This document shows, piece by piece, positions 17,049 to 58,681 of a stretch of DNA of 64,000 nucleotides. The DNA is taken from IMG/VR virus record IMGVR_UViG_3300013947_000021, positions 157,228-221,227 of that record, one strand, 5' to 3'. The DNA is from a virus. Lineage: Duplodnaviria; Caudoviricetes. The notes under the pieces were generated by a model that saw only the letters and a list, made by a program, of their open reading frames with translations, did not search any database and was not told the DNA's origin. A program made the position numbers and the translations under genes. The stretch's first letter is position 1. Each line of letters begins with the position of its first letter.

Positions 17049-18578
17049 TTATGAATTTATTTCATATTGATTCATAAATATCATAGGCTGAATTAATTTA
17101 GCCCTTGCATTCTCAACTTCAGATAATTTACTATCCAATGTATTAGCATTCATATTAACCTCAACACATTTGGTTGCATATTTACTAAAGACTGGCTTTT
17201 TATATTCATAAAATTTTCTAGTATAATAGAATCCATCATCTACTATATCTTTATAAATAGTATTAACGTCTCTGGTACGGCCAAATGTTTGTTGAGCTAA
17301 TACTCTACTCTTGAAGGGTTCAGCTAAATTAACTGTTTCAGTTAATCCTTTAATATCCATTGCTGCTCCAGCAGATTTAGTTGTAGTAAGAATTATCTTC
17401 TTGCTTAATTGCTCTGCTTTAAGCTCTGATGGAATTATACTTGTATAAATACCAACTTGATTTATTAACTCTGGGAAGTTTTCATAAATCCATTTCTGTA
17501 CTTCAAGTATAGCTTCATTGGTTCCTATATAAAATAGACTCTTACCAGGTTTACGAATTGCTGCATCTACCAAGATATATAGAAGTTTTAAGAAATTTTC
17601 ATTATGAATTAAATAATCAGTATATTTAATTCTATTCAATCCATAATTATTCTTACATTCTGTAGCTTCTACAGGACTTGGCATACTGTTAAATCTAATA
17701 GCAGCATACTTTGTATGAGGATCTTCATTTCGATTAAATAAATCTATAGATGGTACATTCTTAAAGTACAATCTATAAATATTATTTTCAGCCATATCAG
17801 ATCTTCCAGGTGTTGCTGTAAGATAATAAGTCAAATAAGTATTACTATAGCAATCTATTTGAAACATATTATCAAAATTTAAATGAGCTTCATCATAGAA
17901 TTTGATTCCTATATTACAATATTTAAAGAAATCAGATACTGTTTCCCAACCTTTGCTATCTCCAATACTTCTTAATGTAGAATGTGTAGAAAGAATAACT
18001 TTATATTTTGATACATCTCGATTCATTAATTTCATAAATGATGGAGCACCACTTATCAAATATATTTCATCCGCAGATATATCAGTATATTCTATAAAGA
18101 ACTTCTTCCACTGTTCTAGCCATCCCACACTATCAGTAATTACAATAGGTCTTAATTGTAAAAATGCTGTTGTAGCTATAGCGCAATATGTCTTACCTTT
18201 ACCAGTATTTAAATTCACACATAGCATTGGATAATGCTTATTATATGAATACTTACCAGAAGATATCATAAACCGTATAGCTTCAGATTGTGTTTCATCT
18301 CTAGGTTTATACTTAAGATTAATTTGTCCTATAGATTTATATGGGTCTACATCATAATCGATTACCGGATCAGAGGAAAATACTCGTGAAAGAAAATCAA
18401 GATCTATACCTCTAGGAAGGTATAGAATTTTCTTTTCTTTATCATATATCATCCCTTTTGGAAATCTTTTATGATAAGTCATATCATAAATAGAAAATGT
18501 CTTCTCAATTGTAGGTGCATCTCCTAGATTATAATCATATATTTCTATATGAGTTCGGTATGCAACTATTTTATTCAT
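17049..18578 (-). CDS. uvsW: SF2 DEAH helicase (UvsW-like)
   Basis: Q motif PRDETQ, NTGKGKT, DEAH, TATPGR, QTFGRTR. Confidence 0.88.
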   Translation of the reverse strand: MNKIVAYRTHIEIYDYNLGDAPTIEKTFSIYDMTYHKRFPKGMIYDKEKKILYLPRGIDLDFLSRVFSSDPVIDYDVDPYKSIGQINLKYKPRDETQSEAIRFMISSGKYSYNKHYPMLCVNLNTGKGKTYCAIATTAFLQLRPIVITDSVGWLEQWKKFFIEYTDISADEIYLISGAPSFMKLMNRDVSKYKVILSTHSTLRSIGDSKGWETVSDFFKYCNIGIKFYDEAHLNFDNMFQIDCYSNTYLTYYLTATPGRSDMAENNIYRLYFKNVPSIDLFNRNEDPHTKYAAIRFNSMPSPVEATECKNNYGLNRIKYTDYLIHNENFLKLLYILVDAAIRKPGKSLFYIGTNEAILEVQKWIYENFPELINQVGIYTSIIPSELKAEQLSKKIILTTTKSAGAAMDIKGLTETVNLAEPFKSRVLAQQTFGRTRDVNTIYKDIVDDGFYYTRKFYEYKKPVFSKYATKCVEVNMNANTLDSKLSEVENARAKLIQPMIFMNQYEINS

Positions 18579-18604
18579 ATTTTTATACTCCTTATATTAA
18601 TTCG

Positions 18605-18767
18605 AAAAAATAAAAGCCTATATATACTCTCTATATAAGTTGACTAAGCTTATATAGAAAGGTATATATAGGGTTGGAAGAAAATCAGACCGGAGAAATA
18701 TTTTAAGAAGGTCTGATTTTGTCGAAAATAAATTTGAGCAAATAATCTAATCTTTTTATTTACTCAT
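18605..18767 (-). ncRNA. Three-hairpin structured RNA / extended terminator downstream of the polymerase gene
   Basis: Stems at about 18617-18672, 18681-18720 and 18735-18766, ending in a U-tract on the minus strand. Confidence 0.45.
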
Positions 18768-18806: not shown

Positions 18807-20467
18807 TTAGAAATGAATAATATTAGTTGTATTATTTGTATCAGAACCTCGTTTAACACCAATAGATTCAATAGGAAATCCTTTTACACTATCATTAACA
18901 ATTTCTGCTACTGAAACAAATGGTATTACCCATTTCGGAACAGGTTCTGCTATTGGAATTGCAATGGCATCTATTCCATCTGAATATTGTTTAGTTTTTA
19001 ATAATGCTATTGCTTTATTATATACTTCTGGAAATGTATCTCTGATCTTATCTATATTCTTAGAATTTATATCAACTTTTACAATGTCTATAGGATTTCT
19101 AGTTGTAAGATCAAGAGCTTCAGTTCCTTCTTCATGAAGCGCATTATATGCATATGATGCTACTATACCTTGAATACGCATAGGATTCTCATATGTGGAT
19201 ACTGCTTTCACTTGTGCAGGTTTATAATATTTCTTTTCTCCAGCATTTATAGAATCAAATATTTCTTGTTCTACTTTATTAATATCCTTTAATACTCTTA
19301 CTATATCAATAGATTCAGAATCAAGAATATCATCATAAAGTATTTTCTTTAAATGCTCTTGTGTTGTAGGATTACTTGTAGACTTAACAAATGCATCCAT
19401 TCCTTTTATATCAAGAGACTTCTCTTCAGGAACTATATGTCCTTCCTGAAGCTCTATCTTAGATGCATAATGTTTCTTTGCATCCGTTATAAGCAATCTC
19501 TTAAATAGAAATTCTGTTTTTAAACTCATCAAACATGGATTGGTATTATTTTTATTTGTATTAGAATTAGCACAATATACTTGCATATATGAGTTTACCA
19601 ATGAACTCATACAATACGTAAATACATTGATAATAGAATATCTTAATCCATCCTGAGGAGTTATAATCATAGGATTAATTTCTCTATCAGCTTCCATCTC
19701 TTCATCATAAGCTTCAGGATTATTAGGATCAAGTTCATTTACTTTAAGATCAGATACTTTAGATTTCATTGTGTCTACATCAGTTACCATTTTCTTTATC
19801 TTCATTGGTATACCTGCGCACATATTTCTTACGTATCTATACAATCCATCATAACAAACTATAGCACTATCAGTATCCTGAATAATACTTACTTTTCTTA
19901 TAAGAGATTTCATCTTTGCTACTCTATTTACAATTTGTTTATCATAATAAACAAATTCTTTTAATAAATCCCTAAGTTCATTAATCTCCTTCTTTATCTT
20001 TTCCGGAGGTTCATTAGGATCCATAAAAGGTTCATCTAATAATTGAAGAATGTAAATAGTAATATCTTGAACAGGCTTATTATCTATAAAATTATAAAGA
20101 TTATTTTTATAGAATAATCTATCAAGATCATCTTGAGGAAGTTTCTCAAGTATTTCCCAAATAATATTCATTTCCTGTTCGGATGGTACCCATCCAAATC
20201 CGGTAGAATGAAGTATCTGGAAAAATGTTTCTTCTATAGATGCATGATTTGTAATTACTTCATAATTTCTATAATATCTCTTTTCGTTAATTACATTATA
20301 AATGAATTCTATAACTTCTTCCATAGATGACATAGGTACATTATTTGCAAGGAAATTCTCAAAGAATAATGCTGCAGATGAAATTGCAGACTGTCCTTGA
20401 GTAGTTATTGCGCTTGCAACATGTACATTATAAAACATGGAAGAATACTGACCGCAAACGCCATAAA
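18807..20467 (-). CDS. polB: Family B DNA polymerase catalytic subunit, exon 2
   Basis: YG of motif B, QDTDS motif C, KKHY and LDIKG; in frame with exon 1 after splicing. Confidence 0.92.
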
Positions 20468-20819
20468 CAAATATGCGATCTGATTTTGTTCACATAGTTC
20501 GCTACTCTATGCAGTTCTTTTATGAACTTCTCTAGTATTTCTCTAGACGATCAGACTATATCTTTACCATTTTACAGGAATGAGTACAGGACTTAGCATT
20601 TTAAGCCTCTTAGTCGTTGAACCTTCTTAGAACTTTTTCTAAGATCGGCTGCTGATTATACATTCTTATCTACTTAGGGTTGCCCCATATAGAATCTCTT
20701 TTGTTGTTTCTGACTTTCGTCCCCATATATAATTTATGGTAAAAGAGCTTTAGCACTTCCCAGCAATTCTCACATTTTAATCGACATTCTTTCGAATGAA
20801 GTGGGCTCTATGGCATTTA
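20468..20819 (-). ncRNA. Group I self-splicing intron, 352 nt, no homing endonuclease
   Basis: Core elements AAUUGCUGGGAA, AAUCAGCAGCC, GUUCAACGACUA and AAGAUAUAGUC; P1 UGGGU/GCCCA; P10 GCCAUAGA/UUUAUGGC; terminal G; splicing restores KIDANGFYG. Confidence 0.95.
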
Positions 20820-21270
20820 ACCCATTCGCGTCAATCTTATAAAGGAGCTGCATTAGATTATACTTCTCAAAGTTTTCCGATCCTTTTGGATACTTAAACA
20901 TTTCTTTTTTAGTTGCTTTTCGAGCATCTATAAAACCTTGTATAAGTTCATATATAGGATTAGGTTTATTAGTATGGCGATTAAACATAACACCAGCAGA
21001 TGTAAATATCGGTTCCCTATCTGCAAGATAATCTGTTAATCTAGTTAATGTAGTTTCTATTTTTGTTTTCTTATAATTATTCTCTATTGTAACTGCTTGA
21101 TCTTTAAAATGTTTTGTAATAGAATTATCTATTACTGCAGCTAATTCTACTTCGGTTAATAATGGAAAATTAAGATGAAGCATATTCATCATAATATTTT
21201 TATATTGCGTAATCATATCATTTTCTGGATATCTAGCTTCTCCAGTTCTAAGTTGATCTCTTAGTTTCAT
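20820..21270 (-). CDS. polB: Family B DNA polymerase catalytic subunit, exon 1
   Basis: SAGVMF, RKATKKEM and QLLYKIDANG fingers / motif B start; spliced product 703 aa. Confidence 0.9.
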
Positions 21271-21981: not shown

Positions 21982-24216
21982 ATGAATTTTGTAACCAACC
22001 AATCAACAGAGCAGCCTACTATCAATATTGAAAACCCTGAAAATTATTGGGTTTATCTTCCTATTCTTCGAGGTGAAAATATTAATCTCGAAATAGGAGC
22101 AATAAATAGAGATAACTGGCAGCATCATTATGATTCTATACTTAATATTTTAAGGGATGCAATTGAAACTGATGAAGTTCAACATGCATTTATTTCTATT
22201 AAATTTAATGATGGAATCACTCTTGATCTCTCGGTTATGGACTATTTACTCAATCTCATAATGTGGAGTATGCTTATAAAAACAGCAGTTCCGATTCAGT
22301 CTTATCATGTATTCTTTGATGAAGAGATTAAAAAGGATTCTATCAAAGATTATATTGATAAATTTCTTATTAATGAATCTCGAAAGAAATATAGCAATAA
22401 GGAGTTGAATAATATCATCGATGATGCTCTATATCATTTTCATGATATAGATGAATTCTCTTTATATTTATCCAATACTGTAAATCTTGAAGATAATGTA
22501 GAATTAATGAACAAGAATCCAGAATTCTATGAGTGTATGCATGCAGATCTTTCTCAGGTTCCTCTTGAAGATGTAAAGTCAGTTGGTATGTCTTATGCAA
22601 ATAAGGCTATTGATTTAATGAAGCATTCTAAACAGTATCTTGGTTATGATCATTGTCTTGCAGATGCTTGTAGAGCTGGCGAAGGCATTAACCCTAAACA
22701 GTTTAAAGAGTTTACTATAAATATAGGTACTAAGCCTGATGGACGTGGTGGAGTATTTGAAAAACCTATACTTCATTCTTTCATTAATGGTGGCGTAGAT
22801 AATCCTGTAGATTATTTTATCGAATCTTCTACAGGTAGAACAGCACAGATTATAAAATATAATAACGTTGGTTCTTCTGGACACTTTGCTAGGCTTTTAG
22901 GTCTTAATAATATGGATTCTCATCTTTGTCATGATTCTCATTATGATTGCGGTAGTACAAACTTTATACAGCTTACAATCAAAGATAAGAAAATGCTTAA
23001 GATGCTTGTAAATCGATATTATAGAACAAATCCTAATGGTATAGAAAATTGTATTAAGAGAACTGATACTCATCTTATTGGACAGACTATATATTTAAGA
23101 TCTCCTATTACTTGTGCATCTGCAGCAAGAGGACAAGGTATATGCTATAAGTGTTATGGCGATCTTGCTTATACTGTTTATGATGCAGATATAAATTTTG
23201 GAGTTAATATTGGACGAGTTGCATCTGAAACTCTTTCATCTAGTTTAACTCAGAAGCTTCTTTCTGCAAAACATCTTCTTGAAACATTTATTGAGAAGAT
23301 TACTTGGAACCCAGAATTCTATAAGTATTTTGAGCTCGAAGGTAATATAATCAGAACTAATGGTGATATTGAAGATTCTGATTTAAAGGATCTTAAAATC
23401 ATTATTAATCCTGATAATATTGCATTGGTAGATGAAGAAGATGATGATCTTTCTTATGATGACGATGATGAGAAAGGAACTCCACTTTATAATGAATACA
23501 TTACAGAGTTTGATGTATTAAATGAAGCTAATGGAGAAGTGTCTCATATTTGTAATGATAAGAATGCAAAACTTTATATATCTTCCGAATTCAATACTGA
23601 GATTCGTCGTAAAGCAGAAGCAATAGATACTAGTGTAGCAATATCATTTAATGATATTAAAGATATTACTTTATTCATTATGCCTATTGAAAATAATGAA
23701 TTAAGTAAGACTCTTGATTATCTTAATGATCTTCTTAATAAGAAGAGTACTATTGAGAAATTTAATATTCATGATCTTCTTCAGAATATTATAGGAGCAG
23801 TTATAGATGGTGGTCTTAATATAGCATCAACTCATCTTGAGGTTATATTGAGCAATCAGTGTAGAGATGCTTCTAATATATTGGAGAAAGCAAAGTGGTA
23901 TCTGCATAATCCTGATTATCAGATACTTACTCTTGATCAAGCATTAACTTCTAATCCTTCTGTAACAGTTTCACTCAGTTATCAGAAAGTAAAACGTATG
24001 CTGTATAATCCTCTTACATTTAAAAAGAATGGTTCATCATTTATGGATTTATTCTTTATGGAACAGCCTCAATATGCTATTAAAGGTATAGAAAAGGATG
24101 AGAATAAAGAACCTGAGCATAAACCTGGAGATGTAATTGAGCCTATGATATTCTTTGAGAATCCTAATGGAATTACTACAACAGACAGTGAAGATGATGA
24201 TAGTGATGAAGGTTAA
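21982..24216 (+). CDS. rpoC: RNA polymerase beta-prime C-terminal half (probably non-virion RNAP)
   Basis: Bridge helix SSGHFARLL, DCGS, RSPITC...ICYKCYG zinc site, trigger loop TQKLLSAKH, THLEVIL. Confidence 0.9.
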   Translation: MNFVTNQSTEQPTINIENPENYWVYLPILRGENINLEIGAINRDNWQHHYDSILNILRDAIETDEVQHAFISIKFNDGITLDLSVMDYLLNLIMWSMLIKTAVPIQSYHVFFDEEIKKDSIKDYIDKFLINESRKKYSNKELNNIIDDALYHFHDIDEFSLYLSNTVNLEDNVELMNKNPEFYECMHADLSQVPLEDVKSVGMSYANKAIDLMKHSKQYLGYDHCLADACRAGEGINPKQFKEFTINIGTKPDGRGGVFEKPILHSFINGGVDNPVDYFIESSTGRTAQIIKYNNVGSSGHFARLLGLNNMDSHLCHDSHYDCGSTNFIQLTIKDKKMLKMLVNRYYRTNPNGIENCIKRTDTHLIGQTIYLRSPITCASAARGQGICYKCYGDLAYTVYDADINFGVNIGRVASETLSSSLTQKLLSAKHLLETFIEKITWNPEFYKYFELEGNIIRTNGDIEDSDLKDLKIIINPDNIALVDEEDDDLSYDDDDEKGTPLYNEYITEFDVLNEANGEVSHICNDKNAKLYISSEFNTEIRRKAEAIDTSVAISFNDIKDITLFIMPIENNELSKTLDYLNDLLNKKSTIEKFNIHDLLQNIIGAVIDGGLNIASTHLEVILSNQCRDASNILEKAKWYLHNPDYQILTLDQALTSNPSVTVSLSYQKVKRMLYNPLTFKKNGSSFMDLFFMEQPQYAIKGIEKDENKEPEHKPGDVIEPMIFFENPNGITTTDSEDDDSDEG

Positions 24217-30596: not shown

Positions 30597-32525
30597 ATGC
30601 TTATGCAATGGCATATAGTCACATCTGCTGTATATAAGGCTGGTACGCCGGTAGATGGTGACATGTATTTCATTAGCGATACCCATGAAATTTATCGTGG
30701 TGCAGTACCATTCACAGAATCTGTTGTAATGTATACTGATCTCCCGGTAGATGGTATTGCAAAGAATAGACTGTATATTAATTCCACCACGCTTGAAGGT
30801 AAGATCCATGATGGCACTGAGTGGAAGACTGTAATCAGACCTATTGACGCAACTGTTACTGCTGATGGCATTAATGCTGTTTCTGGTAAGGCAGTTGCTG
30901 CATATGTTGCTGCAGAGATTGCTAAGGTTACTGCTAGCGGAGACGTTGTTAGTAAGCTTGCATGGGATTCTGCTGAGCATATGCTTACGGTTACTAAGGG
31001 ATCTAATGAGAGTGAGAATATCACTTTCACTGGTCTTGGTGTAAACCTTGACTATGAAGCTGCTACTGGTAACCTTCAGCTTACTGATGCTGCAGGTAAC
31101 AAGATTGGTGATCCGATTAAGCTCGATCTTGAGCGTTTCGTAAAGTCTGCTGAGTATATTGCAGCAGATAAAACTATCGTTCTTTACTTCGATGATGAGA
31201 AGAAGGATTCTATCTCGATTCCTGTTGGAGATCTTGTTGATACCTATACTGCTGAAGCTGCAGATAAGTCTCTTGAGCTTTCCGTTGCTGAAGGTAATGT
31301 AATTAAGGGTAAGGTTAAGATTTCCACTAAGAATGGTAATATTCTTACTCTTAATGATGATGGTCTTTATGTAGCAGCTCCTGATATCACTGGTAAGATG
31401 GATAAGGTTACCGATGGTGTAACTGGAAACATCCTTACTCTTGGTGCAGATGGTCAGGCAGTTGACTCTGGTAAGACCTTTAGCGATCTTGCATCAAATA
31501 ATAAGATTTATAAGGGTGCAACTCTTGAAGAGGCTGTAACTGGCAATACTCCTATTAAGGGTGACGTTGCTATTATTAGCAATAAGATTGGTAGTTCAGA
31601 CAAGGTTGAGCGCAAGGCATATATCCATGATGGTGAAACCTGGCTCCCGATGACCGAGTACTATAATGCCGCTAATGTCATTTTCCCTGAGAATCTTAAG
31701 ACTACTTATGCAATGGGTAATATTACCCTTACTAATGGTCAGGCTGAAATTAATAGTACGGGTAAGAGCTATCTCGATACCTGGAACATGATCTGGGTTA
31801 AGGAGAAGCAGCCTACTGTTACTCAGCCGTCTGTTTCTGTAACTCTTAACCAGGCTAAGGCATATGAGGTTGGTACTTCGGTAACTCCGTCTTATTCTGC
31901 TTCGCTCAATCCTGGTAAGTATGAGTTTAACCCGAATAATGGTGCTACTGGTATTACTGCTTCCAGTTGGGAGATTAGTGATACTGCTGGTCATACTGCT
32001 ACTACTAATACTGGCACGTTTGATGCTATTACTGTAGCAGATGGCATGAATTATAGCATTACTGCTAAGGCTAACTATGAGGATTCTCCGAATGCTCCGC
32101 TTACCAACCTTAGTAATGCAGCAGATGCTTCGAAGAAGATTCTTGCTGGTTCTAAGTCTGCAACTTCTGGTAAGATCACTGGTTTCAGAAATAGTTTCTA
32201 TGGAACTATTACTGAAGCTAATGATACTCCTGCTAGTGCAGATATTCGTAAACTTACAGCTTCTGGCAAGGCACTTGCAAAGGGTGCTAAGATTAACTTG
32301 ACTATTTCTAATACTGCAAAGAGAATTATTATTGCAATTCCTGCAACTCTTGGTGGTGTAGTGGTCACATATGATGAAGGTATGGGAGCAGATGTTACGG
32401 CATCGTTTGCAGCTACTCAGGTAGATGTTGAAGGTGCTAATGGCTATACTGCAGCTGCATATAAGGTATATGTTGCTCCTGCTGCATATTCGGGCACAGT
32501 TCATTATACTGTGGTAATTCAGTAA
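30597..32525 (+). CDS. Fibre/appendage-like structural protein A
   Basis: 642 aa, A/T/G/V-rich, high-expression codons; N-terminal ~300 aa paralogous to 34241-35518. Confidence 0.6.
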   Translation: MLMQWHIVTSAVYKAGTPVDGDMYFISDTHEIYRGAVPFTESVVMYTDLPVDGIAKNRLYINSTTLEGKIHDGTEWKTVIRPIDATVTADGINAVSGKAVAAYVAAEIAKVTASGDVVSKLAWDSAEHMLTVTKGSNESENITFTGLGVNLDYEAATGNLQLTDAAGNKIGDPIKLDLERFVKSAEYIAADKTIVLYFDDEKKDSISIPVGDLVDTYTAEAADKSLELSVAEGNVIKGKVKISTKNGNILTLNDDGLYVAAPDITGKMDKVTDGVTGNILTLGADGQAVDSGKTFSDLASNNKIYKGATLEEAVTGNTPIKGDVAIISNKIGSSDKVERKAYIHDGETWLPMTEYYNAANVIFPENLKTTYAMGNITLTNGQAEINSTGKSYLDTWNMIWVKEKQPTVTQPSVSVTLNQAKAYEVGTSVTPSYSASLNPGKYEFNPNNGATGITASSWEISDTAGHTATTNTGTFDAITVADGMNYSITAKANYEDSPNAPLTNLSNAADASKKILAGSKSATSGKITGFRNSFYGTITEANDTPASADIRKLTASGKALAKGAKINLTISNTAKRIIIAIPATLGGVVVTYDEGMGADVTASFAATQVDVEGANGYTAAAYKVYVAPAAYSGTVHYTVVIQ

Positions 32526-45304: not shown

Positions 45305-46219
45305 ATGAGCGATTTAGGAATAGATATTTCTTATCTTGTAAAGGATGAGAAAAAGGAAGAAGAAGGCGGCATTAAACTTGGTACAATTAATATGAGTGAT
45401 AAGCCTCCTGCAGAAGTTATTGAAGATGCTCCTAAAAAGAAAAAGAGAGAATCTAAAGCTCCTGATGTAAATGCTATGGCATCTAATGCAGCATCTGTTG
45501 AAACTCAAAATTATGCAGATTCATATAATGAAACTAATAATATTATTCGTGGTGCTATTATTCAGGCTGATGTTCTTAGTGGCGAAATTAAACAGGATAT
45601 AGATGCAGTTAGATCTAGTAAAACTATAAAAAATAAATATACTTATATTACTAATCTTACAGCATCAGCTAGTGCACTTATCAATACAAAGATAGCTGCT
45701 GTAAAAGAACTTAATTCATCTATTACTCAGTCTCATAGATTTAATCTTGATAGACTTAAGATGTTTAATAATGAAAATAAAGATGGTAATGATGATGCTA
45801 GAACAATGGACCTTTATAATATGTATCTTACTGGTCCTATGGGTGGTTATATTCCCAATACTCCTTCAGTACAAGATATTAATCTTGGAGTAAATGGTTC
45901 ATCTACTGGAAATATTCAAGGAGTTGATATGGGTGTTAATAATAATGGTGGACAGCCTCTTACTCCTGAACAGAAGAGAATGAGATTTGAATCAAATCCT
46001 GATATCAAAGTTGTAGTAAAATTTGATCAAGCATCTGGAAAAAGATTCTTCGATGTAATTGATGGATCTGGAAAGAGTATTCCTGATTATCCTAGGCCCG
46101 ATGATTTTCTTCTTGAAGATACAACTATTGATGTTGCAGCAGGAGTTGCAAAGAATAGAAATATTAATCAGATCTGGCCTCTTATTATTATCGGTAGTGG
46201 CAATATTAATGAGTATTAA
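45305..46219 (+). CDS. Hypothetical late protein
   Basis: 304 aa, promoter 45265-45277, GGAGGT RBS. Confidence 0.7.
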   Translation: MSDLGIDISYLVKDEKKEEEGGIKLGTINMSDKPPAEVIEDAPKKKKRESKAPDVNAMASNAASVETQNYADSYNETNNIIRGAIIQADVLSGEIKQDIDAVRSSKTIKNKYTYITNLTASASALINTKIAAVKELNSSITQSHRFNLDRLKMFNNENKDGNDDARTMDLYNMYLTGPMGGYIPNTPSVQDINLGVNGSSTGNIQGVDMGVNNNGGQPLTPEQKRMRFESNPDIKVVVKFDQASGKRFFDVIDGSGKSIPDYPRPDDFLLEDTTIDVAAGVAKNRNINQIWPLIIIGSGNINEY

Positions 46220-49285: not shown

Positions 49286-49588
49286 TTAGCATTTATTCAA
49301 AAATCCATATAAAAAGTAATTTAATTTATTATTGTCAAGTAGTGGTTTTGGAAAACCAGAAGACCAATCTATCATATATTCTTTATTGCAAGATTTACAT
49401 TTCATAGATCGAATTTCATACTTGTCAAAATAAGTCATTTTTCCTTTTAAATAATTTGTTACAGCTTCTGAATAATGCTGTGGATAACCATTAAAACTAA
49501 TAAGTTCTATTCTCTGAGCTTTACAATTTGGACATACATCTGGTCTTATAAATTTAATTGGTTCAATCATGACTGATACTTGTACCAA
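49286..49588 (-). CDS. Zinc-ribbon protein
   Basis: CPNC...CKSC. Confidence 0.7.
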   Translation of the reverse strand: MVQVSVMIEPIKFIRPDVCPNCKAQRIELISFNGYPQHYSEAVTNYLKGKMTYFDKYEIRSMKCKSCNKEYMIDWSSGFPKPLLDNNKLNYFLYGFLNKC

Positions 49589-50355
49589 GCACCTATCATA
49601 TTTCCAAGTGTGTTCATAAGTGTAAGCTCAGATACGCCAAGAGTATTAAAACTATTCTCGTTAGCTTCTATAAGAATTTCTTTAATAGAAGAAATATTAT
49701 TCTTTAATTCCTTCTTGATATTTACATTCTCAGCATTAAATCCAGCAGATGATATTGTAGATTTAGTACTGCTAAGAGCATAGCAAATTAAATCTACAAT
49801 ATAAAATTCATCTGTAATATTCATATTAAAAGCAAATTTAAGAGCGATATATAATGGAATTGTTCTAAGAGTCTTTGCGACAAAATTCTGTTCCCAAATG
49901 TCTAAAGTACTATAATCAATATATATGCACTTTAAACTATCAAATATGATTTTAAGAAAATCATACTTTTCTTTATCAGAAATATTCTTATTAGTAATAT
50001 TTACATACTTATCCTTAATCATATTAAGATATCCAACTCTTAATACATATTCTTTTTCAATAAATGCGTTATTATCACTTCTTATAACTGTCTTAAAATT
50101 ATTCAAATTAGAATATCTAGAATTTGGAGTATCAGTATCTTCATTATCTGGAGCTATAAATGTATAGATCTCACTAATCCTAGAGAAATTAGAGTCTATC
50201 ATAGATTGTACTAATTTACAATCATCCAATTTGTATCCAAGTTCATCAGCTATACATCTTGTTGGCTCCATATAGGTCTGCTGACCTATATTACCATTTA
50301 TAATTCTATTATAATGATTAATAATCTGAAAATTATAATTATTTAAAATACTCAT
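49567..50355 (-). CDS. Hypothetical protein
   Basis: 262 aa ORF overlapping both neighbours. Confidence 0.65.
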   Translation of the reverse strand: MSILNNYNFQIINHYNRIINGNIGQQTYMEPTRCIADELGYKLDDCKLVQSMIDSNFSRISEIYTFIAPDNEDTDTPNSRYSNLNNFKTVIRSDNNAFIEKEYVLRVGYLNMIKDKYVNITNKNISDKEKYDFLKIIFDSLKCIYIDYSTLDIWEQNFVAKTLRTIPLYIALKFAFNMNITDEFYIVDLICYALSSTKSTISSAGFNAENVNIKKELKNNISSIKEILIEANENSFNTLGVSELTLMNTLGNMIGAWYKYQS

Positions 50356-50678
50356 TCTTCATTTTTATCCAAAGGATTCTTTCCCAATGGCCTTTCATTT
50401 TTAAGTTGTTCTAGAAGTTTGCCTCTAATGAATATTAAAGATGCTCTGGTATATGGAATATATCCGCCCTGCCATCTAATCATCTTAACTTGATATCCAC
50501 AATTCTTACAAACTCCTATACATTTAATTTCAGTATCTTCTGATATAGGATCACCATCATCTGTTAAATCCATAACTGTAACCTCACTATCTACTACAGT
50601 TAATGGAGATGAACATTTATGACAGCATCCTGGTCCATGATATATAAATGGATTAATTTCTATTTCCTTTTTTCCCAT
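50352..50678 (-). CDS. Zinc-ribbon protein
   Basis: CHKC...CKNC; resembles 49286-49588. Confidence 0.7.
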   Translation of the reverse strand: MGKKEIEINPFIYHGPGCCHKCSSPLTVVDSEVTVMDLTDDGDPISEDTEIKCIGVCKNCGYQVKMIRWQGGYIPYTRASLIFIRGKLLEQLKNERPLGKNPLDKNEE

Positions 50679-50679
50679 T

Positions 50680-50901
50680 TTATATCGCCTCCGGTTCTGT
50701 ATATCTCATAGTTTCAACTTCTCCTTCTGCTACTAACTTTGCATCAGGATATCTTGAACTATCTTTAGATGTCAGTTCAGTGAATGGTTTTTTAACACCA
50801 TTCACTATAACATGGCCTACTATAAAATTTCTACCTCTCTTCTTTTCTAACTCTACTCTAAGCTTAAGTTGTTCAGAAGAATAATAAAAATATTTATACA
50901 T
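50680..50901 (-). CDS. Small hypothetical protein
   Basis: 73 aa, GGAGGAG RBS, tightly coupled to neighbours. Confidence 0.7.
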   Translation of the reverse strand: MYKYFYYSSEQLKLRVELEKKRGRNFIVGHVIVNGVKKPFTELTSKDSSRYPDAKLVAEGEVETMRYTEPEAI

Positions 50902-52702
50902 TGCTTATCTCCTCCAAGCTTACAATTTCACCTTCATCAGCATTAATTACAGGTTTAATGATAGATTGCATTGTAGCAATAACTTCATTAGCAACTGCAA
51001 TTTGATCAGAATAATCTTTACCTGTAAGTTTGGAATCAAATACCATAGCATCTCGAATATTAATAGTTTTCTTATAGCTTTCCATAGCTTCAAAGAATTC
51101 TTTATCCCAAGTATTTGGTTCTTGATAATCTTCAAAGAATCCTCCTTCATATATAGGAGCATAAGGACAAATAGTTCCAGTAATACCCGGATTACCATCT
51201 GATGATGAATCAAGATCTACTTTACCAATGTGAGATGGATAAATAGATCTATAAATTTCAGGAATAGAGTTATTAGAACCTTCACCTAATCCTGCTATTC
51301 CTTTATAAGTGAATTTAAGAGCTTGCATAGCATCCATATCAGATACCATATTTCTGTAAGAAACCATTCTAGATGTCGATATTGCATTAAGCAAATAACT
51401 AGGATCAGTTCTTATAGCTTTCTTTATACTTGCTATACTAGCTTTTTTATTCATATCAGAAACTCTATATATACCTTTTACTATCTTAAAAGCATAGAGA
51501 GAAGCTATATATTCTGCGAATCTAATTCTCTTATAATTGATATCAAGATTATCTTTAAGTCTAAGAGCATTAAATTCTCTCATTATCCATCTGAAAATAT
51601 GATAAGTTGTTGCTTTATCTTCTTCAGGAAGTCTGATAGATTTACGTGTAGATATATCATATATAGATTCAAAAGAACTTAAAATACTATATCCTTTTTC
51701 AAGAGGATCTGCTATAGTATCTCCATCTTCTGGATTATAAAACTGATATATTTTTTCATTACAATGAGAACCAAATTCTGCACCAAGGCTTCTAACCCAA
51801 TATTTATCATCGAATATAATTTCATATGGAAGTCCAGGAACTATATTCTTATAAAGGGTTAATACCAAAGTCTGTATAATTGGATTCTTATCAAGTAATA
51901 CCTTAGGACTACTAATATATACTCCTTCAGAAGGACTTATTGTATACATATTTTCATCCTTAGGATCATAGTCAGAAAGATATATAGCACCATTTAATTC
52001 AAGGAAATTAAGAGTGCCATAATATCCAAATTTTGCGAGAATATACTTAACTGCAGAAATACCTTTATTAAATATTCTCGAATGATAATAAGTTAATTTA
52101 AGATTCTCTCCTGCAGTTGTAGTAATACTATTATCAAAATATCTAGTGACTCTAGCTGCCATAAATACTATCTTAAATGTAATTGATGGTACCTTTGCAT
52201 TAGAAGTTCCATTATTATAAGTAGAACCATCTACTATCTGGAATAAAGTGGATCTCATAATACCATTAATCTTAAAATAATATTTCTCAACTATTCTAGG
52301 AATTGCTATAAGAACATCAAAATATTCTTCACTAGGGTTCTCTTCAGTTCCACGAGAATCCTTAGCATAATAAGTTACTATAAGAAGTCTTATAGCAGAT
52401 TCTTTAATATTGATATAATCATACTGATTATCACGTTTCTTCTTCTTATTCTTATTTTTATTCATATCCTCATAATAAGAATAAAGAATAGAATTTATTT
52501 CATCATAATTGTCTACAACTCTATATGAATGTACTTTTATTGTGAAATAAGGATTTTCTCTTTCACAAGAATAAATTACATTCATAAGTTCTGTTACAAT
52601 TTCATCTTCATTTCTCTGAAAGAATATCGGATTGAAATGTTCTCTACTATCTTTTATATACTGAGATATTGCTTCTCTTGGATTAGTAGGATTATTCATC
52701 AT
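50894..52702 (-). CDS. rpoB: RNA polymerase beta N-terminal half (probably non-virion RNAP)
   Basis: IP..YFKING..FQIV and RSIYPSHIGKVD..SSDGNPG fork-region motifs; start near 52702 from RBS. Confidence 0.88.
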   Translation of the reverse strand: MMNNPTNPREAISQYIKDSREHFNPIFFQRNEDEIVTELMNVIYSCERENPYFTIKVHSYRVVDNYDEINSILYSYYEDMNKNKNKKKKRDNQYDYINIKESAIRLLIVTYYAKDSRGTEENPSEEYFDVLIAIPRIVEKYYFKINGIMRSTLFQIVDGSTYNNGTSNAKVPSITFKIVFMAARVTRYFDNSITTTAGENLKLTYYHSRIFNKGISAVKYILAKFGYYGTLNFLELNGAIYLSDYDPKDENMYTISPSEGVYISSPKVLLDKNPIIQTLVLTLYKNIVPGLPYEIIFDDKYWVRSLGAEFGSHCNEKIYQFYNPEDGDTIADPLEKGYSILSSFESIYDISTRKSIRLPEEDKATTYHIFRWIMREFNALRLKDNLDINYKRIRFAEYIASLYAFKIVKGIYRVSDMNKKASIASIKKAIRTDPSYLLNAISTSRMVSYRNMVSDMDAMQALKFTYKGIAGLGEGSNNSIPEIYRSIYPSHIGKVDLDSSSDGNPGITGTICPYAPIYEGGFFEDYQEPNTWDKEFFEAMESYKKTINIRDAMVFDSKLTGKDYSDQIAVANEVIATMQSIIKPVINADEGEIVSLEEISNV

Positions 52703-53336
52703 CACTTTCTCCTCCATCTCCATAAGAACCTGTAAGTTCTGCAGATATACTCGTCCCAATTGGATTAGGAACATCTGGTGCATTATCTTCAAGAATTAAG
52801 GTTGCCTTAATATCAAGGGCATTACATATATCTTTAAGCTTTCTAAATGTAATGCTACCTTTTCCAAGGAGTCTCTTATCATTATTATAATTAACTCCAA
52901 ATCTTTCACCATATTTATCAAGATCTATATGTTTAGATATAATAGCTTCTTTAATTGCCTTCATTTCAGGATCATCATTTGCTCCTACTTTTGGTACAAA
53001 TAAATTATCTATTGTAGTCAATATAGATCTTTCTTCAGAAGCTAATTTCTGTTGACTTTGTATAATCTCTTTTAAATTACTAGCTTCTCTAAAATTTATA
53101 ATATTCTGCTCACTATACATAGACCTTTCTGAACCCTGAGGCTGAACATAAATATTCATGCCGCCAGTCATATAAACACCAGGTCTATTATCAAACCTAT
53201 TTCTTACTGGATAAATATATCCATCATTATTTCTTACAGCAGTATACTGGCCAAATAATTCAGGATGTTCCATCAATTCTTTTTCGGTGGTGACATCATA
53301 TATAGCATCACCTATTTTAGCTTTTTCTAATGACAT
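52692..53336 (-). CDS. Hypothetical protein with possible C-terminal HTH
   Basis: ITFRKLKDICNALD is XRE-like; RBS before ATG 53336. Confidence 0.6.
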   Translation of the reverse strand: MSLEKAKIGDAIYDVTTEKELMEHPELFGQYTAVRNNDGYIYPVRNRFDNRPGVYMTGGMNIYVQPQGSERSMYSEQNIINFREASNLKEIIQSQQKLASEERSILTTIDNLFVPKVGANDDPEMKAIKEAIISKHIDLDKYGERFGVNYNNDKRLLGKGSITFRKLKDICNALDIKATLILEDNAPDVPNPIGTSISAELTGSYGDGGESDDE

Positions 53337-53413: not shown

Positions 53414-54019
53414 TCAAAGGCCCTTATCGTTCTTAATAATCTGCTTAATATACTCACCAGGAGTAATTGTATATATCTTTGTATCTCCATCTACAGATAC
53501 TCCTGCAGTAAATACAGATCTGAGAGTTACCTGAAGCTCTTCATCAGGAGATGCATTCTTATCGAGGAACTTCTTAAGAACATCGATAAGAGTACCAAGC
53601 ATCTGATCAGTATGCTCAAGTGTTACGAATCTACCATAAAGAATAGATTCAGCTTCATGGTCACAGCATGTAATAAAGAGATCAGAATGATTATCAATCT
53701 CCTTATCAGCATCCTTAAGATCATCTTCATTAAATGTAAACGAGAGGAACCAGTTACCCTTATCCTCCTCATCTTCATCCGGCTCAATGAATTCAAGAGC
53801 TGCTCCAAAGATAAATTCACCCTTAGTATTCTTATACTTAAATGCAATCTTCTTATAGCTCTTATCTTCAGACAGCTTCAGTACATCTGCTATTGTACTG
53901 AAAAATATACGATACATATCTGCGGTTCTAGATTCGACCCACATGAAATTAAAGTTGTCATGGAGCTCGATGCTATAGTTTGCTGCAATGCTCGTGTTTT
54001 CAAAGTTAAATTCTTTCAT
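53414..54019 (-). CDS. Abundant acidic probable early protein
   Basis: High-expression codons, GATATTAT at 54097-54104, leader hairpin, own terminator near 53370-53400. Confidence 0.7.
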   Translation of the reverse strand: MKEFNFENTSIAANYSIELHDNFNFMWVESRTADMYRIFFSTIADVLKLSEDKSYKKIAFKYKNTKGEFIFGAALEFIEPDEDEEDKGNWFLSFTFNEDDLKDADKEIDNHSDLFITCCDHEAESILYGRFVTLEHTDQMLGTLIDVLKKFLDKNASPDEELQVTLRSVFTAGVSVDGDTKIYTITPGEYIKQIIKNDKGL

Positions 54020-54137: not shown

Positions 54138-56435
54138 TTACAAATATTTATCTGGATTTGCTTTAAATGAAGCCATATCTACAATAATTGCTTCAGGACG
54201 TATTTTAGAAGTTTTGGAACTACTAAATCCTATATATGGTACTACCAATATATCAGTTGTTCTAGTAACTCCTGCATCTCCTCTAGCATCACATCCTTTA
54301 CTATCAAGATATGACTGAAGTTCTTCATCTGGTCTACAACCAGTAAATCTTATTACCTTTCCAGTATCAATTGTTCCATATGATTGAATTATATTATTCA
54401 TATTAGATATGAATAATAAATCTTCTTTAAGATCATTTCTTTCAGAAACAATTGTATTAGCTATTACATTTCCAATTCCATGAATAGCTCTTAATTTCTC
54501 ATAAAGTATTTCATCTGTATCTCTTATAATTTCTTTTAGAGTTATACACTTTAAAATCTTTTTCCAAGTCTCAATTGCTATTCCTGTAAACCCAATACTT
54601 CCAATAAGCTTATAATCTTGAATAGGTGTATTCTTTATTACATTTATTCTTTCTATAAGAGCTTCAGAAGTTTTAGGACCAAGAAATTCAAGATCTTTAA
54701 TTGTATAATTCATTAATTCACTAAATGATGAAGTCTTTAACGTTCTAAAAGTTTCTTCTCCAAAATCTTTTAGATTTAATTTATCCATCATATTAGCCAT
54801 TTTAGATATTAATCTCTCAGGGCATTTCTTATTTGGGCATATTACAGATTTTCCTGATTCATTTATAATCAATTCAGTTCCACAATATGGACAAACTTTT
54901 GGAAATTCTTCTGGAGGATTTGGATTATGAAGATTATTATTTGTATACAGCTTGCTTACATATGGCATTACATCATTTGTATATTCAATCTGTACTACAT
55001 CTCCAATTGCTAATCCTAAATCCATAAACCGTTTATAAGAATGACCACTAGATTTTGTATGAATGGTTCCATAAAATTCTACTGGAGTATAATGAATCAT
55101 TGGGGTTACAATTCCGTCTTGTCCAATGGTATACGTATATCCAGTAAATATAGCTTCTCTTACTAAAGGATTAAATTTGATTGCTATACTATATTTATTT
55201 ATAGAATTTTCTCTTCCAAGAGCTTTAATAATCTTTGGATCTGTATAAGAAATTACTACTCCATCGTACATAAATGGAAGTATATTTCTCATAGCTTGAG
55301 CTTCTTGTACAAATTTATATACTTGGAATAATACTTGTGTATAGGTTCCTCTAAGAATTGCATACTTAAGATATATTCCAGAATTATAATATTTATTAAG
55401 AAACTCTATTTCTGTTATTCTATCAATATCATCAATAGAAGTTGCTAATGGAACAAGGGTTATAAGATCTCTATAATCATATGCATCAGAAGATCCTAAT
55501 AATCCTATTATTCCATTTCGTGAATTTTTATATGCTTTACCTCTTAATCTTGACATTTTATCGAGATTATTATAGGTCATAATAGCCTCAAATTTCATAC
55601 CAAAAGATTTATCTATAGGTTTAGCATATGGGAATTTATATCCACCAAGAATATCTGTAAGATCTGCTGCTATATCTTCATTAGCATCTCCTCTACTTCT
55701 TGCTGATATAATATGATCAGTTACATCTGCTTCTACAGATACACCATCATACTTTAATTCTGCTACCATTTCAAATGGAGTTGTCATATCAATGAGTCCC
55801 ATCTGTAAATGTTTTCCAAGAAAATCTCTTTCAAAAACTTTTACATTTTCATCATTAAATACTCCACGATCAATAGCTTCTTTATCCAAAGTAAATTTAC
55901 ACTTATCAAGTGAGCCAACTAACTTTGGATATTTATGAGGAATATTTATATTACGTTTCGATATAGTTTTTCCACTTGAAATAAATTCTTTATCTATATA
56001 AAGATTAGGGTCTATTGGTGGACTTTTTATTATATCATCATAATACAAACTATCATTAACAAATTTATCAATATCTGGAGTATCTATAAATACCATAGGA
56101 TCTTTCATATCCTGATTGGTTACAAGTTCTCCATTTTGATTAAATTCAATTACTGGTGCTCCTATTTGAAAATTCTCATTATATTTTTTATATTTTTCAA
56201 GCAAAAGATCATAAACACCATCATCAAGAAATAATACAGATTTGTCTGTATTATTATAAACTATCTGACTTATAGAAATTATAATACTTGCATTGGCTAC
56301 ATCAAAATTATCTAATGTATCTTTTGCTAATATCTTCATAGTTTCATCAGAAACTAATTTAATATTAGTTGCATTTAATACACTTAAATCACCAGACATT
56401 AGTCTTTGTAAAATATTATTTAATATTTCTTGCAT
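54138..56435 (-). CDS. ligA: NAD-dependent DNA ligase
   Basis: ELKYDG, SRGD, DGVV, AIKF, CPYC..CPN..C zinc finger, HhH and BRCT. Confidence 0.95.
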   Translation of the reverse strand: MQEILNNILQRLMSGDLSVLNATNIKLVSDETMKILAKDTLDNFDVANASIIISISQIVYNNTDKSVLFLDDGVYDLLLEKYKKYNENFQIGAPVIEFNQNGELVTNQDMKDPMVFIDTPDIDKFVNDSLYYDDIIKSPPIDPNLYIDKEFISSGKTISKRNINIPHKYPKLVGSLDKCKFTLDKEAIDRGVFNDENVKVFERDFLGKHLQMGLIDMTTPFEMVAELKYDGVSVEADVTDHIISARSRGDANEDIAADLTDILGGYKFPYAKPIDKSFGMKFEAIMTYNNLDKMSRLRGKAYKNSRNGIIGLLGSSDAYDYRDLITLVPLATSIDDIDRITEIEFLNKYYNSGIYLKYAILRGTYTQVLFQVYKFVQEAQAMRNILPFMYDGVVISYTDPKIIKALGRENSINKYSIAIKFNPLVREAIFTGYTYTIGQDGIVTPMIHYTPVEFYGTIHTKSSGHSYKRFMDLGLAIGDVVQIEYTNDVMPYVSKLYTNNNLHNPNPPEEFPKVCPYCGTELIINESGKSVICPNKKCPERLISKMANMMDKLNLKDFGEETFRTLKTSSFSELMNYTIKDLEFLGPKTSEALIERINVIKNTPIQDYKLIGSIGFTGIAIETWKKILKCITLKEIIRDTDEILYEKLRAIHGIGNVIANTIVSERNDLKEDLLFISNMNNIIQSYGTIDTGKVIRFTGCRPDEELQSYLDSKGCDARGDAGVTRTTDILVVPYIGFSSSKTSKIRPEAIIVDMASFKANPDKYL

Positions 56436-56497
56436 AAAATTATTCCCTTCAATAAATTAATAGAGATAGGATGTTATTCCTATCTCTATTATAATAT

Positions 56498-58681
56498 TTA
56501 TTTGAAAAACTTCATCGGATAAATTACTATTGGATGCTTCATATCCCTTTCTTTAATATGCCGTGCAGCTTCTTCTCTCCAATCCAATTTCTCATTCTTA
56601 TCAAAGAATGTAAATGGGCTAATGAGTTTATCTTCTGGCGGTCTATTAAATACCATAGGATAGATTTCCATTGATACAGCTTTCTTTTTAGGATGCCTTG
56701 TAAATATTAACTTTAGACCCATAGATTTTAGATATGCATTAAGAATTTCAACATTTCTATTCTTAGATTCCATATCAAGTTTAATATCTATATTGAATGG
56801 GTCATCTGTTAATAGTGCTTCAGTTAATCGTCTTGCATGAGGAGATGTAGAATAAATCATAAGCATCTGTACAACAAGTTCTGCACCAAGATGAATAAGA
56901 TTTCCTGTCTCCATATTACCGAATCTAATCGGTGTCCTAGCAAAAATTGATTTATAGTTATTGCTACTCTTACTCTTACTATTTTCATTTCTGACATTAG
57001 TAGCAGAAAGAGAAGTAACACTAAACTTTTCCTCGGCATACTGCTTAAGCCTATAAATATATTGATATCCATATACCATAGGTCTTCTGGAACAAGCATA
57101 ACGTATTTTTCCATTAGAACCTACAACAGGCATATACATATATTCTGGCTTAATCCAAGGAAATGTTTTATAAAGTTGATCTACCTTATCAATAGTCATA
57201 TTCTCAGACATTGGCTCTATTGCAAGATAGAAAGATTTCTCATTACCCATAAGCATATGCATATATTGGATACAATCAAAGTCACTATGACTTTCAAAGA
57301 AATCCAGTGAATATTCATACATACTGGGTGATACTATCTTAAGAAAATCTAGATACATTCTAATACAATCGCTTATGTCAAAAACGTTCATATTAAAATA
57401 TTCTATAAGTTTCATTGAGATATAGCTTACAGTTATTTCAAATAACTGACCTGCATTTTCTCGTCCATAGACACCACACATATTAAGTATGACATCTACA
57501 ACTTCTCCAGATTCAGTTCTAGGCATTTCATCATCAGGTTTTATCTTTGCAGTAATTCCTTTGCCTCCATACCTATTACTAAGTTTATCTCCTTGAGCTA
57601 CATTTATTTCTTCAACAAGTGTAATCTCAAGTACAATATTTGAGAATGCTCTTTCAGAATAATATTGTTTTCCATTAAGAGTATTCTGTGCTATAGAATA
57701 GAGTCTCTGAAGATCATAGTCCATCTTATATCCAGTATTTACAAATGGAGAAAGAATTTCAACTATCTCTTCGCACATTCTCATATTCTCTTTATAATAT
57801 TTATTGATCTGTGCATTATATGCATATTCCTCAAGTTTCTGAGGAGCATTACAATAAACATCAATATCTACCACTCTACCAGCTACAGTATATCTTTCAT
57901 CAGAGATCGATAATTCTCTAAGTCTAGCATAAGACTGGCTGTATAAAGATTCTTCTCGCTTCTCTCTTCTTAATCCACAAAGAATACTATCTTTAACCTT
58001 TTCTCCTATATCAGGGAAGATTTTATAGATATTATTATCTCCATAAAGATTAAGAGGAATATCGTTATCATTAATAACGATAGAAACTTTCTTTACAAGA
58101 GGAGATGCTAATTTCTTTGAAGCTGATTCAGAAATTACTATAGCATCTTCCATAGTCTTCTCACAAGCAGAATACATTGTAAGAAGATTCTTTCCATCCA
58201 TTCGATTATCAAATTCATCAAAAGCCATAGACTTCTGAATTATTGTTCCTTCTGGAATACGTTCTCCAACCATAAGACTATCTATTTTATTATTATCAAA
58301 TAAATAGCCATAGTTTTCAGTTACATGTTTATATTCTTTTCGTTCAAATACATGAATATTATCATCAGTATCAATAGTAAATACATAAAATTGATGCTTG
58401 GGATCATAGGAAAATTTAGGTACAATGCCTATAACTTCCATATCCCTGTCTACATCAATAAATGATGATGAATTTCGTCCAAATTCCATTTCATATCCAG
58501 TTTGGATATATGGAACATCTGGTTTCATTAGTGGTAATCTATGTTCAAGCTGCGTACCAAACATAAGTTTTCTTGAACCAGAGTTAGATGCATTAAATGG
58601 CATCTGTAGTCCCTTGCCAAGAATGTGATCAATATTATCTACTTTCACATTCTCAACTTGATTCAAAATATTAAGTGACAT
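56498..58681 (-). CDS. rpoB: RNA polymerase beta C-terminal half (probably non-virion RNAP)
   Basis: EDAIVIS, GDKLSNRYGGKG, DVILN..GRENAGQ, YIYRLKQ, RFGNMET. Confidence 0.92.
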   Translation of the reverse strand: MSLNILNQVENVKVDNIDHILGKGLQMPFNASNSGSRKLMFGTQLEHRLPLMKPDVPYIQTGYEMEFGRNSSSFIDVDRDMEVIGIVPKFSYDPKHQFYVFTIDTDDNIHVFERKEYKHVTENYGYLFDNNKIDSLMVGERIPEGTIIQKSMAFDEFDNRMDGKNLLTMYSACEKTMEDAIVISESASKKLASPLVKKVSIVINDNDIPLNLYGDNNIYKIFPDIGEKVKDSILCGLRREKREESLYSQSYARLRELSISDERYTVAGRVVDIDVYCNAPQKLEEYAYNAQINKYYKENMRMCEEIVEILSPFVNTGYKMDYDLQRLYSIAQNTLNGKQYYSERAFSNIVLEITLVEEINVAQGDKLSNRYGGKGITAKIKPDDEMPRTESGEVVDVILNMCGVYGRENAGQLFEITVSYISMKLIEYFNMNVFDISDCIRMYLDFLKIVSPSMYEYSLDFFESHSDFDCIQYMHMLMGNEKSFYLAIEPMSENMTIDKVDQLYKTFPWIKPEYMYMPVVGSNGKIRYACSRRPMVYGYQYIYRLKQYAEEKFSVTSLSATNVRNENSKSKSSNNYKSIFARTPIRFGNMETGNLIHLGAELVVQMLMIYSTSPHARRLTEALLTDDPFNIDIKLDMESKNRNVEILNAYLKSMGLKLIFTRHPKKKAVSMEIYPMVFNRPPEDKLISPFTFFDKNEKLDWREEAARHIKERDMKHPIVIYPMKFFK

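Follow-up and report, generated by a model that had tools for sequence, protein, structure and literature searches.

In the final 64 kb of the IMG/VR virus record IMGVR_UViG_3300013947_000021 (the window, to which coordinates refer unless marked otherwise), enzymes of DNA replication and of non-virion transcription carry a short motif, [LIV]-I-x-P-M-x-F(-F/M), mostly close to their ends. Most likely, this motif represents a short linear docking tag private to the phage lineage, a reading that is well supported by comparison with related genomes. As the receptor of the tag we propose the protein encoded at 42203-43006, which is predicted to adopt a sliding-clamp fold; we give this assignment a probability of about 0.5.

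The whole record of 221,227 bp, here termed G000, has a G+C content of 29.6% and is 89% complete according to CheckV. Because its beta' subunit shares 29% identity with its counterpart in Bacillus phage AR9/PBS1, the surrounding gene order is common to both and no close cultured relatives were found, we place the phage, on sequence grounds, as a distant, uncultured AR9-like jumbo phage. The metagenome runs richest in its DNA come from animal gut, one of them being labelled bovine gut; none of the sequencing runs listed with its DNA was an RNA run. As in AR9, the family-B DNA polymerase is divided over two subunits, one for the exonuclease and one catalytic, and homology to AR9 genes revealed two sets of split multisubunit RNA polymerase genes, as AR9 has. 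By the same homology, the tagged RNA polymerase subunits belong to the non-virion (late) enzyme. For comparison, we used the whole proteomes of four related contigs (G001-G004) and one further locus, with AR9 as a tagless outlier.

The following carriers, some of them weak, were found in the window:

17076-17096, minus strand: LIQPMIF in the C-terminal tail of a superfamily 2 (ResIII) helicase (gene 17049-18578; residue 495 of 509)
19662-19679, minus strand: INPMII, weak and tag-like, in the DNA polymerase catalytic subunit (exon 18807-20438)
24133-24156, plus strand: VIEPMIFF in the C-terminal tail of non-virion RNA polymerase beta'C, homologue of AR9 g154 (gene 21982-24216; residue 718 of 744)
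43119-43259, minus strand: LINVMEFF, LIEPMIFM and LINPMEI in the C-terminal tail of the polymerase exonuclease subunit (gene 42954-45029; residues 591, 617 and 631 of 691)
49550-49567, minus strand: (M)IEPIKF at the N-terminus of a zinc-ribbon protein of 94 amino acids (gene 49286-49570)
50640-50657, minus strand: INPFIY at the N-terminus of a second zinc-ribbon protein (gene 50352-50678)
50894-52783, minus strand: non-virion RNA polymerase betaN, homologue of AR9 g105, with a weak C-terminal IIKPVIN in G000 and a full IIKPMIF in G001
56088-56108, minus strand: MKDPMVF, a weak tag, inside an insertion of ~45 residues in the NAD-dependent DNA ligase (gene 54138-56435)
56504-56665, minus strand: IYPMVF, LISPFTFF and VIYPMKFF in the C-terminal tail of non-virion RNA polymerase betaC, homologue of AR9 g089 (gene 56498-58681; residues 673, 686 and 719 of 727)

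Outside the window, the tag occurs in a 254-amino-acid protein (two copies), in a 272-amino-acid protein (a C-terminal copy) and at the end of a 53-amino-acid protein, whose gene is in all cases followed by a conserved one for 177 amino acids (G000, G002 and G004; G000 149332-150055, minus strand). To judge from an IEPMIF-coding site at G001 109265, the 53-amino-acid gene seems to be present in G001 too, missed by open reading frame (ORF) calling. Taken over its subunits, the late RNA polymerase carries up to about six tags, and up to four of its five subunits are tagged in G001.

Motif counts in G000 cover the 216 called ORFs of the whole genome, with expectations from per-protein residue shuffles that keep the composition. 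The pattern I.PM.F was observed 8 times versus 0.25 expected, and the longer I.PM.F[FMY] 7 times versus 0.03 expected. For [LI].P[MF].F, the looser pattern of an earlier note on this DNA, 11 copies were observed against 1.1 expected. When a scoring matrix was applied to G000, a clear gap separated nine strong copies from all else. A second position matrix, derived from the tails of helicase orthologues, gave 11 matches in G000 (0.5 in shuffles), 15 in G001 (0.8 in shuffles) and 11 in G004 (0.55 in shuffles), and 0 in the AR9 proteome. Overall, enrichment over shuffles was 20- to 200-fold in G000, G001 and G004; none was seen in AR9.

The matches cluster at protein ends: 35 of 37 strong matches in three genomes lie no more than 70 residues from one (p = 2e-11). 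In the AlphaFold2 (AF2) model of the helicase, the tag is a coil directly past the last long helix, where the predicted local distance difference test score (pLDDT) declines from 93 to 73 and then 53. Owing to the positions at protein ends, this coil and the ligase insertion, which is missing from the AR9 ligase, the motif is predicted to be exposed, outside folded cores.

Across lineages, the tag is found at the same positions of the same proteins. Most of the 120 helicase orthologues (57-100% identity) keep [LIV]-[IV]-Q-P-[MI]-x-F in an otherwise variable tail, some in two copies, and in a subset of 50 sequences P498 and F501 are invariant and M499 is nearly so. The beta'C tail past residue 689 has no counterpart in AR9, and beta'C orthologues keep the tag at the same place, each with its own lineage spelling. 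The same holds for the exonuclease subunit, with one to three tags in G001, G002 and G003, again in their own spelling, and for betaC, with two to three tags in G001, G004 and G003. At the corresponding place, the ligase has FIEPMVF in G001 and YSEPISF in G004, and the second zinc-ribbon protein has LIEPMIY in G001 and IEPIEIY in G004, while orthologues of the 94-amino-acid zinc-ribbon protein start with LIDPFII, LINPIIF, LINPLLH or QKMIEF. The catalytic-subunit stretch around INPMII, which is missing in the AR9 homologue, holds LIDPMVI in G001 at the same place; whether INPMII, which is without the final F, counts as a tag is uncertain. Beyond its tags, the exonuclease subunit shows a motif N-(P)-N-Q-[HQ]-[YF] at or near the C-terminus in G000 (42954-43000, minus strand), G001 and G002, which might be a contact to the catalytic subunit.

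Single proteins acquire and drop tags between lineages, as short linear motifs commonly do. The spelling, in turn, shifts in all proteins of one genome together:

G000 and G001: [LI]-I-x-P-M-x-F
G004: L-[IV]-x-P-I-x-F
L069, a further lineage: Y-x-P-V-x-F (twice in the helicase, in beta'C and in the AR9 g161-like protein)
G002: L-I-[DN]-P-L (17 observed versus 4 expected)
G003: [KQPS]-M-[VI]-x-F (17 observed versus 2.8 expected; 1-2 in the other genomes)

Since this respelling is concerted by lineage, it points to one phage-encoded receptor that would co-evolve with the tags, and speaks against a conserved host pocket. The replacement of P by A seen in part of the helicase tails was likewise weighed as concerted respelling and rejected, as the L070 helicase has A and its beta'C keeps P.

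Relatives of G000 tag additional proteins, namely a DnaB-like helicase, SbcD and the N-terminus of a gp226-like polymerase subunit. Intron-encoded HNH homing endonucleases likewise carry an N-terminal tag, which reads TNPVIFY in G000 (119425-120018, minus strand) and MLIQPMIF in G001 (199893-200519, plus strand); to judge from these, selfish elements appear to copy the current tag spelling of the phage. Two further carriers in relatives have their G000 counterparts in the window:

14726-15481, minus strand: homologue of AR9 g161, 251 amino acids, with an N-terminal tag in G001-G004 and L069 that has degenerated to SNPIDN in G000
45305-46219, plus strand: protein of 304 amino acids with an N-terminal tag in G001, G002 and G003 and none in G000

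When protein families were grouped manually, 12 of about 22 DNA- or RNA-enzyme families had the tag, versus 0 of about 26 virion families (Fisher p = 9e-6). No matches were found among homologues of AR9 virion proteins or of virion RNA polymerase subunits, and gyrase, UvsX, primase, the RecD-like helicase and RNase H are without a tag in every genome compared.

The earlier note had listed motif copies in these enzymes, and every one of them was found at its place. We also agree with its description of the motif as residing usually in terminal tails or insertions (35 of 37 matches near ends, the ligase copy within an insertion), as being absent from structural proteins (0 matches among the virion homologues) and as multivalent in two proteins, which are betaC and the polymerase exonuclease subunit with their multiply tagged tails. 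Of the points it had raised for testing, enrichment over the whole proteome (8 versus 0.25 for I.PM.F, 11 versus 1.1 for its own pattern) and conservation in orthologues both came out in its favour, the tag being kept at the same places across relatives. Burial in folded cores, which it had raised as an objection, finds no echo in the low-confidence coil of the helicase model or in the ligase insertion. It had suggested that the motif docks its carriers to a common hub: enrichment, end position, orthologue conservation and concerted respelling speak for the docking, whereas the identity of the hub is something we infer.

The earlier note had named three candidates for this hub. For one of them, a sliding-clamp fold was predicted:

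42203-43006, minus strand: sliding-clamp-fold protein of 267 amino acids, the proposed receptor, recognized through its AF2 fold, Foldseek, VIA-align and a family hidden Markov model (HMM)

The first 53 nt of its gene lie within the end of the polymerase exonuclease gene, with a GGAAGGAA ribosome-binding site upstream. The AF2 model (pLDDT 92.4, predicted template modelling score 0.89) was compared with known structures. Foldseek against the PDB returned sliding clamps as all top matches, namely beta clamp, PCNA, African swine fever virus PCNA and 9-1-1 (best E 4.6e-4, probability up to 0.98, TM-scores ~0.3). With VIA-align, 50 of 50 rows were clamps, spanning residues 6-267 of the model, and the best were T4/RB69 gp45 with Z 8.5-8.7 and a root-mean-square deviation of 4.4 Å over 189 residues. 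In these fold comparisons, the protomer consists of two topologically similar clamp domains. As these match scores are moderate and no sequence similarity to solved clamps was found, we regard the product of 42203-43006 as a clamp-fold protein, short of a proven ring clamp.

The clamp-fold family comprises 72 homologues of about 266 amino acids, and a profile search of 1.8 billion proteins gave relatives of at most 282 amino acids throughout (57 representatives). The family HMM found exactly one member in each of G000, G001, G002, G003 and G004, directly after the polymerase exonuclease gene. Direct profile comparison with the ORF at this position in G002 was weak (probability 24%, E 8e-4); homology to it was established via intermediates and the family HMM. 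AR9, itself tagless, has no member according to the family HMM, and its annotation lists no sliding clamp; in AR9, the polymerase exonuclease gene is followed by g131, which was considered as a relative and proved unrelated. Both the fold and this joint presence or absence of tags and clamp gene speak for the clamp-fold protein as receptor. A tblastn search with the clamp-fold protein against 50,697 phage records gave no match, and the six clamp-fold loci in IMG/VR are too few for a covariation test. Co-folding of the clamp-fold protein with the helicase tail (residues 470-509) scored 0.00 in both runs, to which the tool assigned the verdict 'no answer', neither for nor against binding. Throughout the family, C28, C31 and H54 (C-x-x-C ... 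H-E) do not vary, and a basic loop, P-x-K-K-K-N-P, is likewise conserved; metal binding would be out of the ordinary in a clamp.

The arrangement that we propose for the clamp-fold protein falls under the clamp 'toolbelt' principle, which is already known. Tags would be displayed at the flexible termini, and in one case on an inserted loop, of proteins that act on phage DNA. A single phage-encoded receptor would read all of them and co-evolve with them, giving each lineage its private spelling. On DNA, the clamp-fold protein would act as the toolbelt: it would hold the polymerase and give it processivity, it would bring helicases, ligase, nucleases and selfish endonucleases to replicating DNA, and it would tether the late RNA polymerase there with high avidity, as T4 gp45 does for its clients, the gp43 polymerase, ligase and the late-transcription proteins gp33 and gp55. 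The binding of tag and clamp, the oligomeric state of the clamp, its route onto DNA and the coupling of transcription to replication are all steps that we infer.

The list of clients resembles that of known clamps, and T4/RB69 gp45 offers several parallels. Both systems have a short hydrophobic or aromatic peptide on flexible ends of polymerase, ligase and late-transcription machinery, and a two-domain clamp-fold protein encoded with the polymerase, gp45 being the best structural match. In contrast to T4, no gp44/62-type loader was found in G000, its clamp-fold protein has no sequence similarity to gp45, and the tags sit directly on subunits of the phage multisubunit RNA polymerase, as well as on helicases and homing endonucleases. 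The tag of G000 may further be N-terminal, internal or repeated, it is respelt per lineage, and its binding is as yet putative. The clamp fold of its candidate at 42203-43006 (pLDDT 92.4, best matches gp45) fits the analogy with the clamp-binding peptide of T4 that the earlier note had drawn.

The clamp-binding motifs of PCNA clients and of bacteria, the PCNA-interacting peptide (PIP) box Q-x-x-[LIM]-x-x-[FY]-[FY] and QL[SD]LF, keep a stable consensus across whole domains of life. Like the tag, they are short terminal hydrophobic or aromatic motifs on polymerases, ligases, nucleases and helicases, and are sometimes repeated. The tag differs from them in having M-x-F-F after an invariant proline and no conserved Q, and in being private to a small phage lineage. 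In herpesviruses, UL42 and UL44 are clamp-fold proteins that work without a loader and attach to the C-terminal tail of the viral family-B polymerase, and one herpesvirus processivity factor was among the fold matches of our model. The clamp fold is a shared feature, as the tail of a family-B polymerase as partner would be; UL42/UL44 differ in having one client, the polymerase, instead of a dozen, and in lacking any sequence relation.

A further parallel comes from Rhc of the Chimalliviridae (Goslar gp190, PhiKZ gp155), an RNase H fused to a clamp-derived domain that forms no ring (PMC13648698, an October 2026 preprint). Rhc is a polymerase subunit whose clamp-derived domain binds the split polymerase; it pulls down subunits of the non-virion RNA polymerase and is required for late transcription in these viruses, which have no identifiable sliding clamp (PMC13648698). 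A word search of PMC13648698 gave no mention of a motif. Not being a ring, Rhc would have no need of a loader. Both cases combine a clamp-type protein, in G000 one predicted from its fold and linked to the polymerase by gene overlap, with a split family-B polymerase in a jumbo phage that encodes multisubunit RNA polymerases. Among the fold matches of the clamp model were 'Ribonuclease H' proteins of ~500 amino acids from phages RP12, Noxifer and Wellington (E 1e-3 to 7e-3), which we take to be Rhc proteins. Unlike Rhc, the 267-amino-acid protein stands alone, has the clamp fold throughout and no RNase H domain; the RNase H homologue of G000 is a separate gene (G000 137713-138441), and the phage is AR9-like, not a chimallivirus. 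Given the biology of Rhc and the Rhc-like fold matches, a loader-independent clamp-like hub for replication and late transcription is plausible in this clade by analogy.

Several findings weigh against the clamp-fold protein as receptor. No sequence similarity to known clamps was found with Pfam, PHROGs or a PDB-sequence profile search, and the assignment is one of fold, with Z of 7-8.7 and TM-scores of ~0.3. The spacing of the tag, compared directly, fits neither the PIP box nor QL[SD]LF. In known clamp networks it is not typical for DnaB to be tagged, nor for three or four subunits of a single polymerase; such tags fit a targeting signal on each subunit equally well. One point in favour, the divergence of the clamp-fold protein, must be read with care. 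Its Smith-Waterman score is 538 between G000 and G001, which have a common spelling, versus 53 between G000 and G002, which differ; the resulting ratio of 0.10 is lower than that of any of 60 further shared proteins (minimum 0.28, median 0.67). This comparison is biased, since proteins that have diverged beyond BLAST detection in G002 were excluded. By identity, the clamp-fold protein ranks only in the lower quartile when G000 is set against G001 or G004. Finally, no AAA+ clamp loader was found in the 221-kb record (89% complete), so a closed ring would lack a known route onto DNA. PF00004 matched nothing above threshold, the P-loops of the RecD-like and UvsX genes scoring below it, and a Walker A scan revealed no RFC-like protein; a 246-amino-acid P-loop protein is without family match. 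Nor was a DnaN-like gene found in the record (PF02768, no match). A loader could be encoded in the missing part of the record.

Among other explanations, the main rival holds that the tag is an address signal that directs proteins, subunit by subunit, into a replication compartment or condensate, read by a scaffold or import receptor like the encapsulation peptides of microcompartments and encapsulins. Multiple tagged subunits within one RNA polymerase (up to four of five in G001), some with two or three copies, fit targeting before assembly or multivalent partitioning, and tags on homing endonucleases and small DNA-binding proteins, together with untagged virion RNA polymerase subunits, agree with it as well. 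Yet the DNA enzymes gyrase, UvsX, primase, RecD-like helicase and RNase H are untagged in all genomes compared, Pfam and PHROGs scans gave no scaffold candidate, and no compartment is known for AR9-like phages, a review placing AR9 outside the Chimalliviridae, the chimallin family. The large unknown proteins of G000 matched no Pfam family, and no search aimed at chimallin was made. In the literature, we found no description of such a tag in jumbo phages, nor of a compartment in AR9-like phages. We consider the address signal unlikely, and a different replisome protein or a host receptor less likely still.

Such a replisome protein might be the AR9 g161-like product of 14726-15481, which may bind single-stranded DNA and use its own tag for cooperative self-association. 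It is kept in all five genomes and adjoins the helicase, and AR9 g161 hints at a role of the single-stranded DNA-binding protein (SSB) type through its acidic tips. However, it is itself tagged in four related genomes and the L069 lineage, its own tag is lost in G000 although the other tags persist, and it has no family match, which leaves it a distinctly improbable receptor. A receptor supplied by the host, for instance its beta clamp or SSB, is a poorer candidate again. No recognisable clamp loader is encoded by the phage, which would suit it, and some phages use the host clamp, as papers on phage Mu late transcription state. Against it, the spelling shifts sharply among related gut phages, the tag is off the QL[SD]LF consensus, and the phage has its own clamp-fold gene. 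Host clamp pockets and QL[SD]LF are widely conserved, and such a pocket could hardly drive respelling so fast. That the motif arose by chance or as a compositional artefact of an AT-rich genome, in which I, N, K, F and M are common residues, is already refuted: 7-11 copies stand against 0.03-1.1 in composition-keeping shuffles, positions are conserved in orthologues, and matches concentrate at protein ends.

Among the hub candidates of the earlier note, 14726-15481 looks like a client rather than a hub, because it carries the tag itself in four related genomes and the L069 lineage. Neither this protein nor the third candidate (53414-54019) matched a Pfam or PHROGs family. At its extreme C-terminal end (14726-14760, minus strand), the g161-like protein has a second small motif, N-I-x-x-L-E/G, which is kept in G000, G001, G002 and G004. 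In AR9, protein tips resemble the C-terminal tip of bacterial SSB: the DnaB-like helicase (g007, L057:3583-5268) ends in DSGIPF, and g161 (L059:33973-34998) contains DDDIPF and ends in GGINF. Because of this resemblance, AR9 may use a different tail code. As clamps, we also considered the two phrog_12252 paralogues of 221 and 238 amino acids (L007:9381-10046, plus strand; G000 139321-140037, minus strand), which are homologous to AR9 g242. They were dropped, since their invariant C, E-x-H-H, D-x-C, H and H look like those of a metal-dependent nuclease, possibly an HNH-like metal enzyme. The pair is among the most conserved proteins of the clade (80% identity to G001), and a protein-atlas search added nothing.

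Some neighbouring genes gave observations of their own. The gene of the DNA polymerase catalytic subunit is interrupted by a group I intron (20533-20851, minus strand), which lies between ORFs 18807-20438 and 20770-21270, both matching one 701-amino-acid protein of G001; the match of the intron to RF00028 reached 48.8 bits at a gathering score of 50 (E 3.8e-11). Around 20483-20579, a piece of 80-97 nt is ~80% identical to sequences within unrelated genes of many phages. At 30597-35518 (plus strand), one 546-amino-acid G001 protein is matched by each of three neighbouring ORFs (642, 524 and 425 amino acids), which lie in the most G+C-rich part of the window (0.41 versus ~0.29 elsewhere). Elsewhere, a 483-amino-acid protein with a ThyX (flavin-dependent thymidylate synthase) domain (L008:5580-7031, minus strand) is encoded next to a weak thymidylate-kinase-like gene and the 272-amino-acid tag carrier. 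The AR9 annotation lists no thymidylate synthase. AR9-type DNA may contain uracil; if so, the G000 phage may make thymidine DNA instead.

Returning to the clamp-fold protein as receptor, we tentatively extend this reading, in a form that we ourselves hold to be doubtful. A loader-free hub would tie the multisubunit late RNA polymerase to the replisome through tags on several subunits, as an independent reinvention of T4-style replication-coupled late transcription. Fast, concerted respelling would then privatise the machinery of each lineage: it would not work with that of relatives infecting the same cell, and access would be left only to resident selfish endonucleases that reproduce its present spelling. 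Docking of the late RNA polymerase on a replication clamp, if it does occur, could couple late transcription to replication. Concerted respelling also offers a clear case from nature of co-evolution between a motif and its receptor, and the tags of the homing endonucleases suggest that selfish elements follow the spelling in force. With a clamp-fold protein that stands alone and a tag that can be read on about 12 clients, one would have a wiring diagram of the replisome and of late transcription for a large uncultured clade of gut phages.

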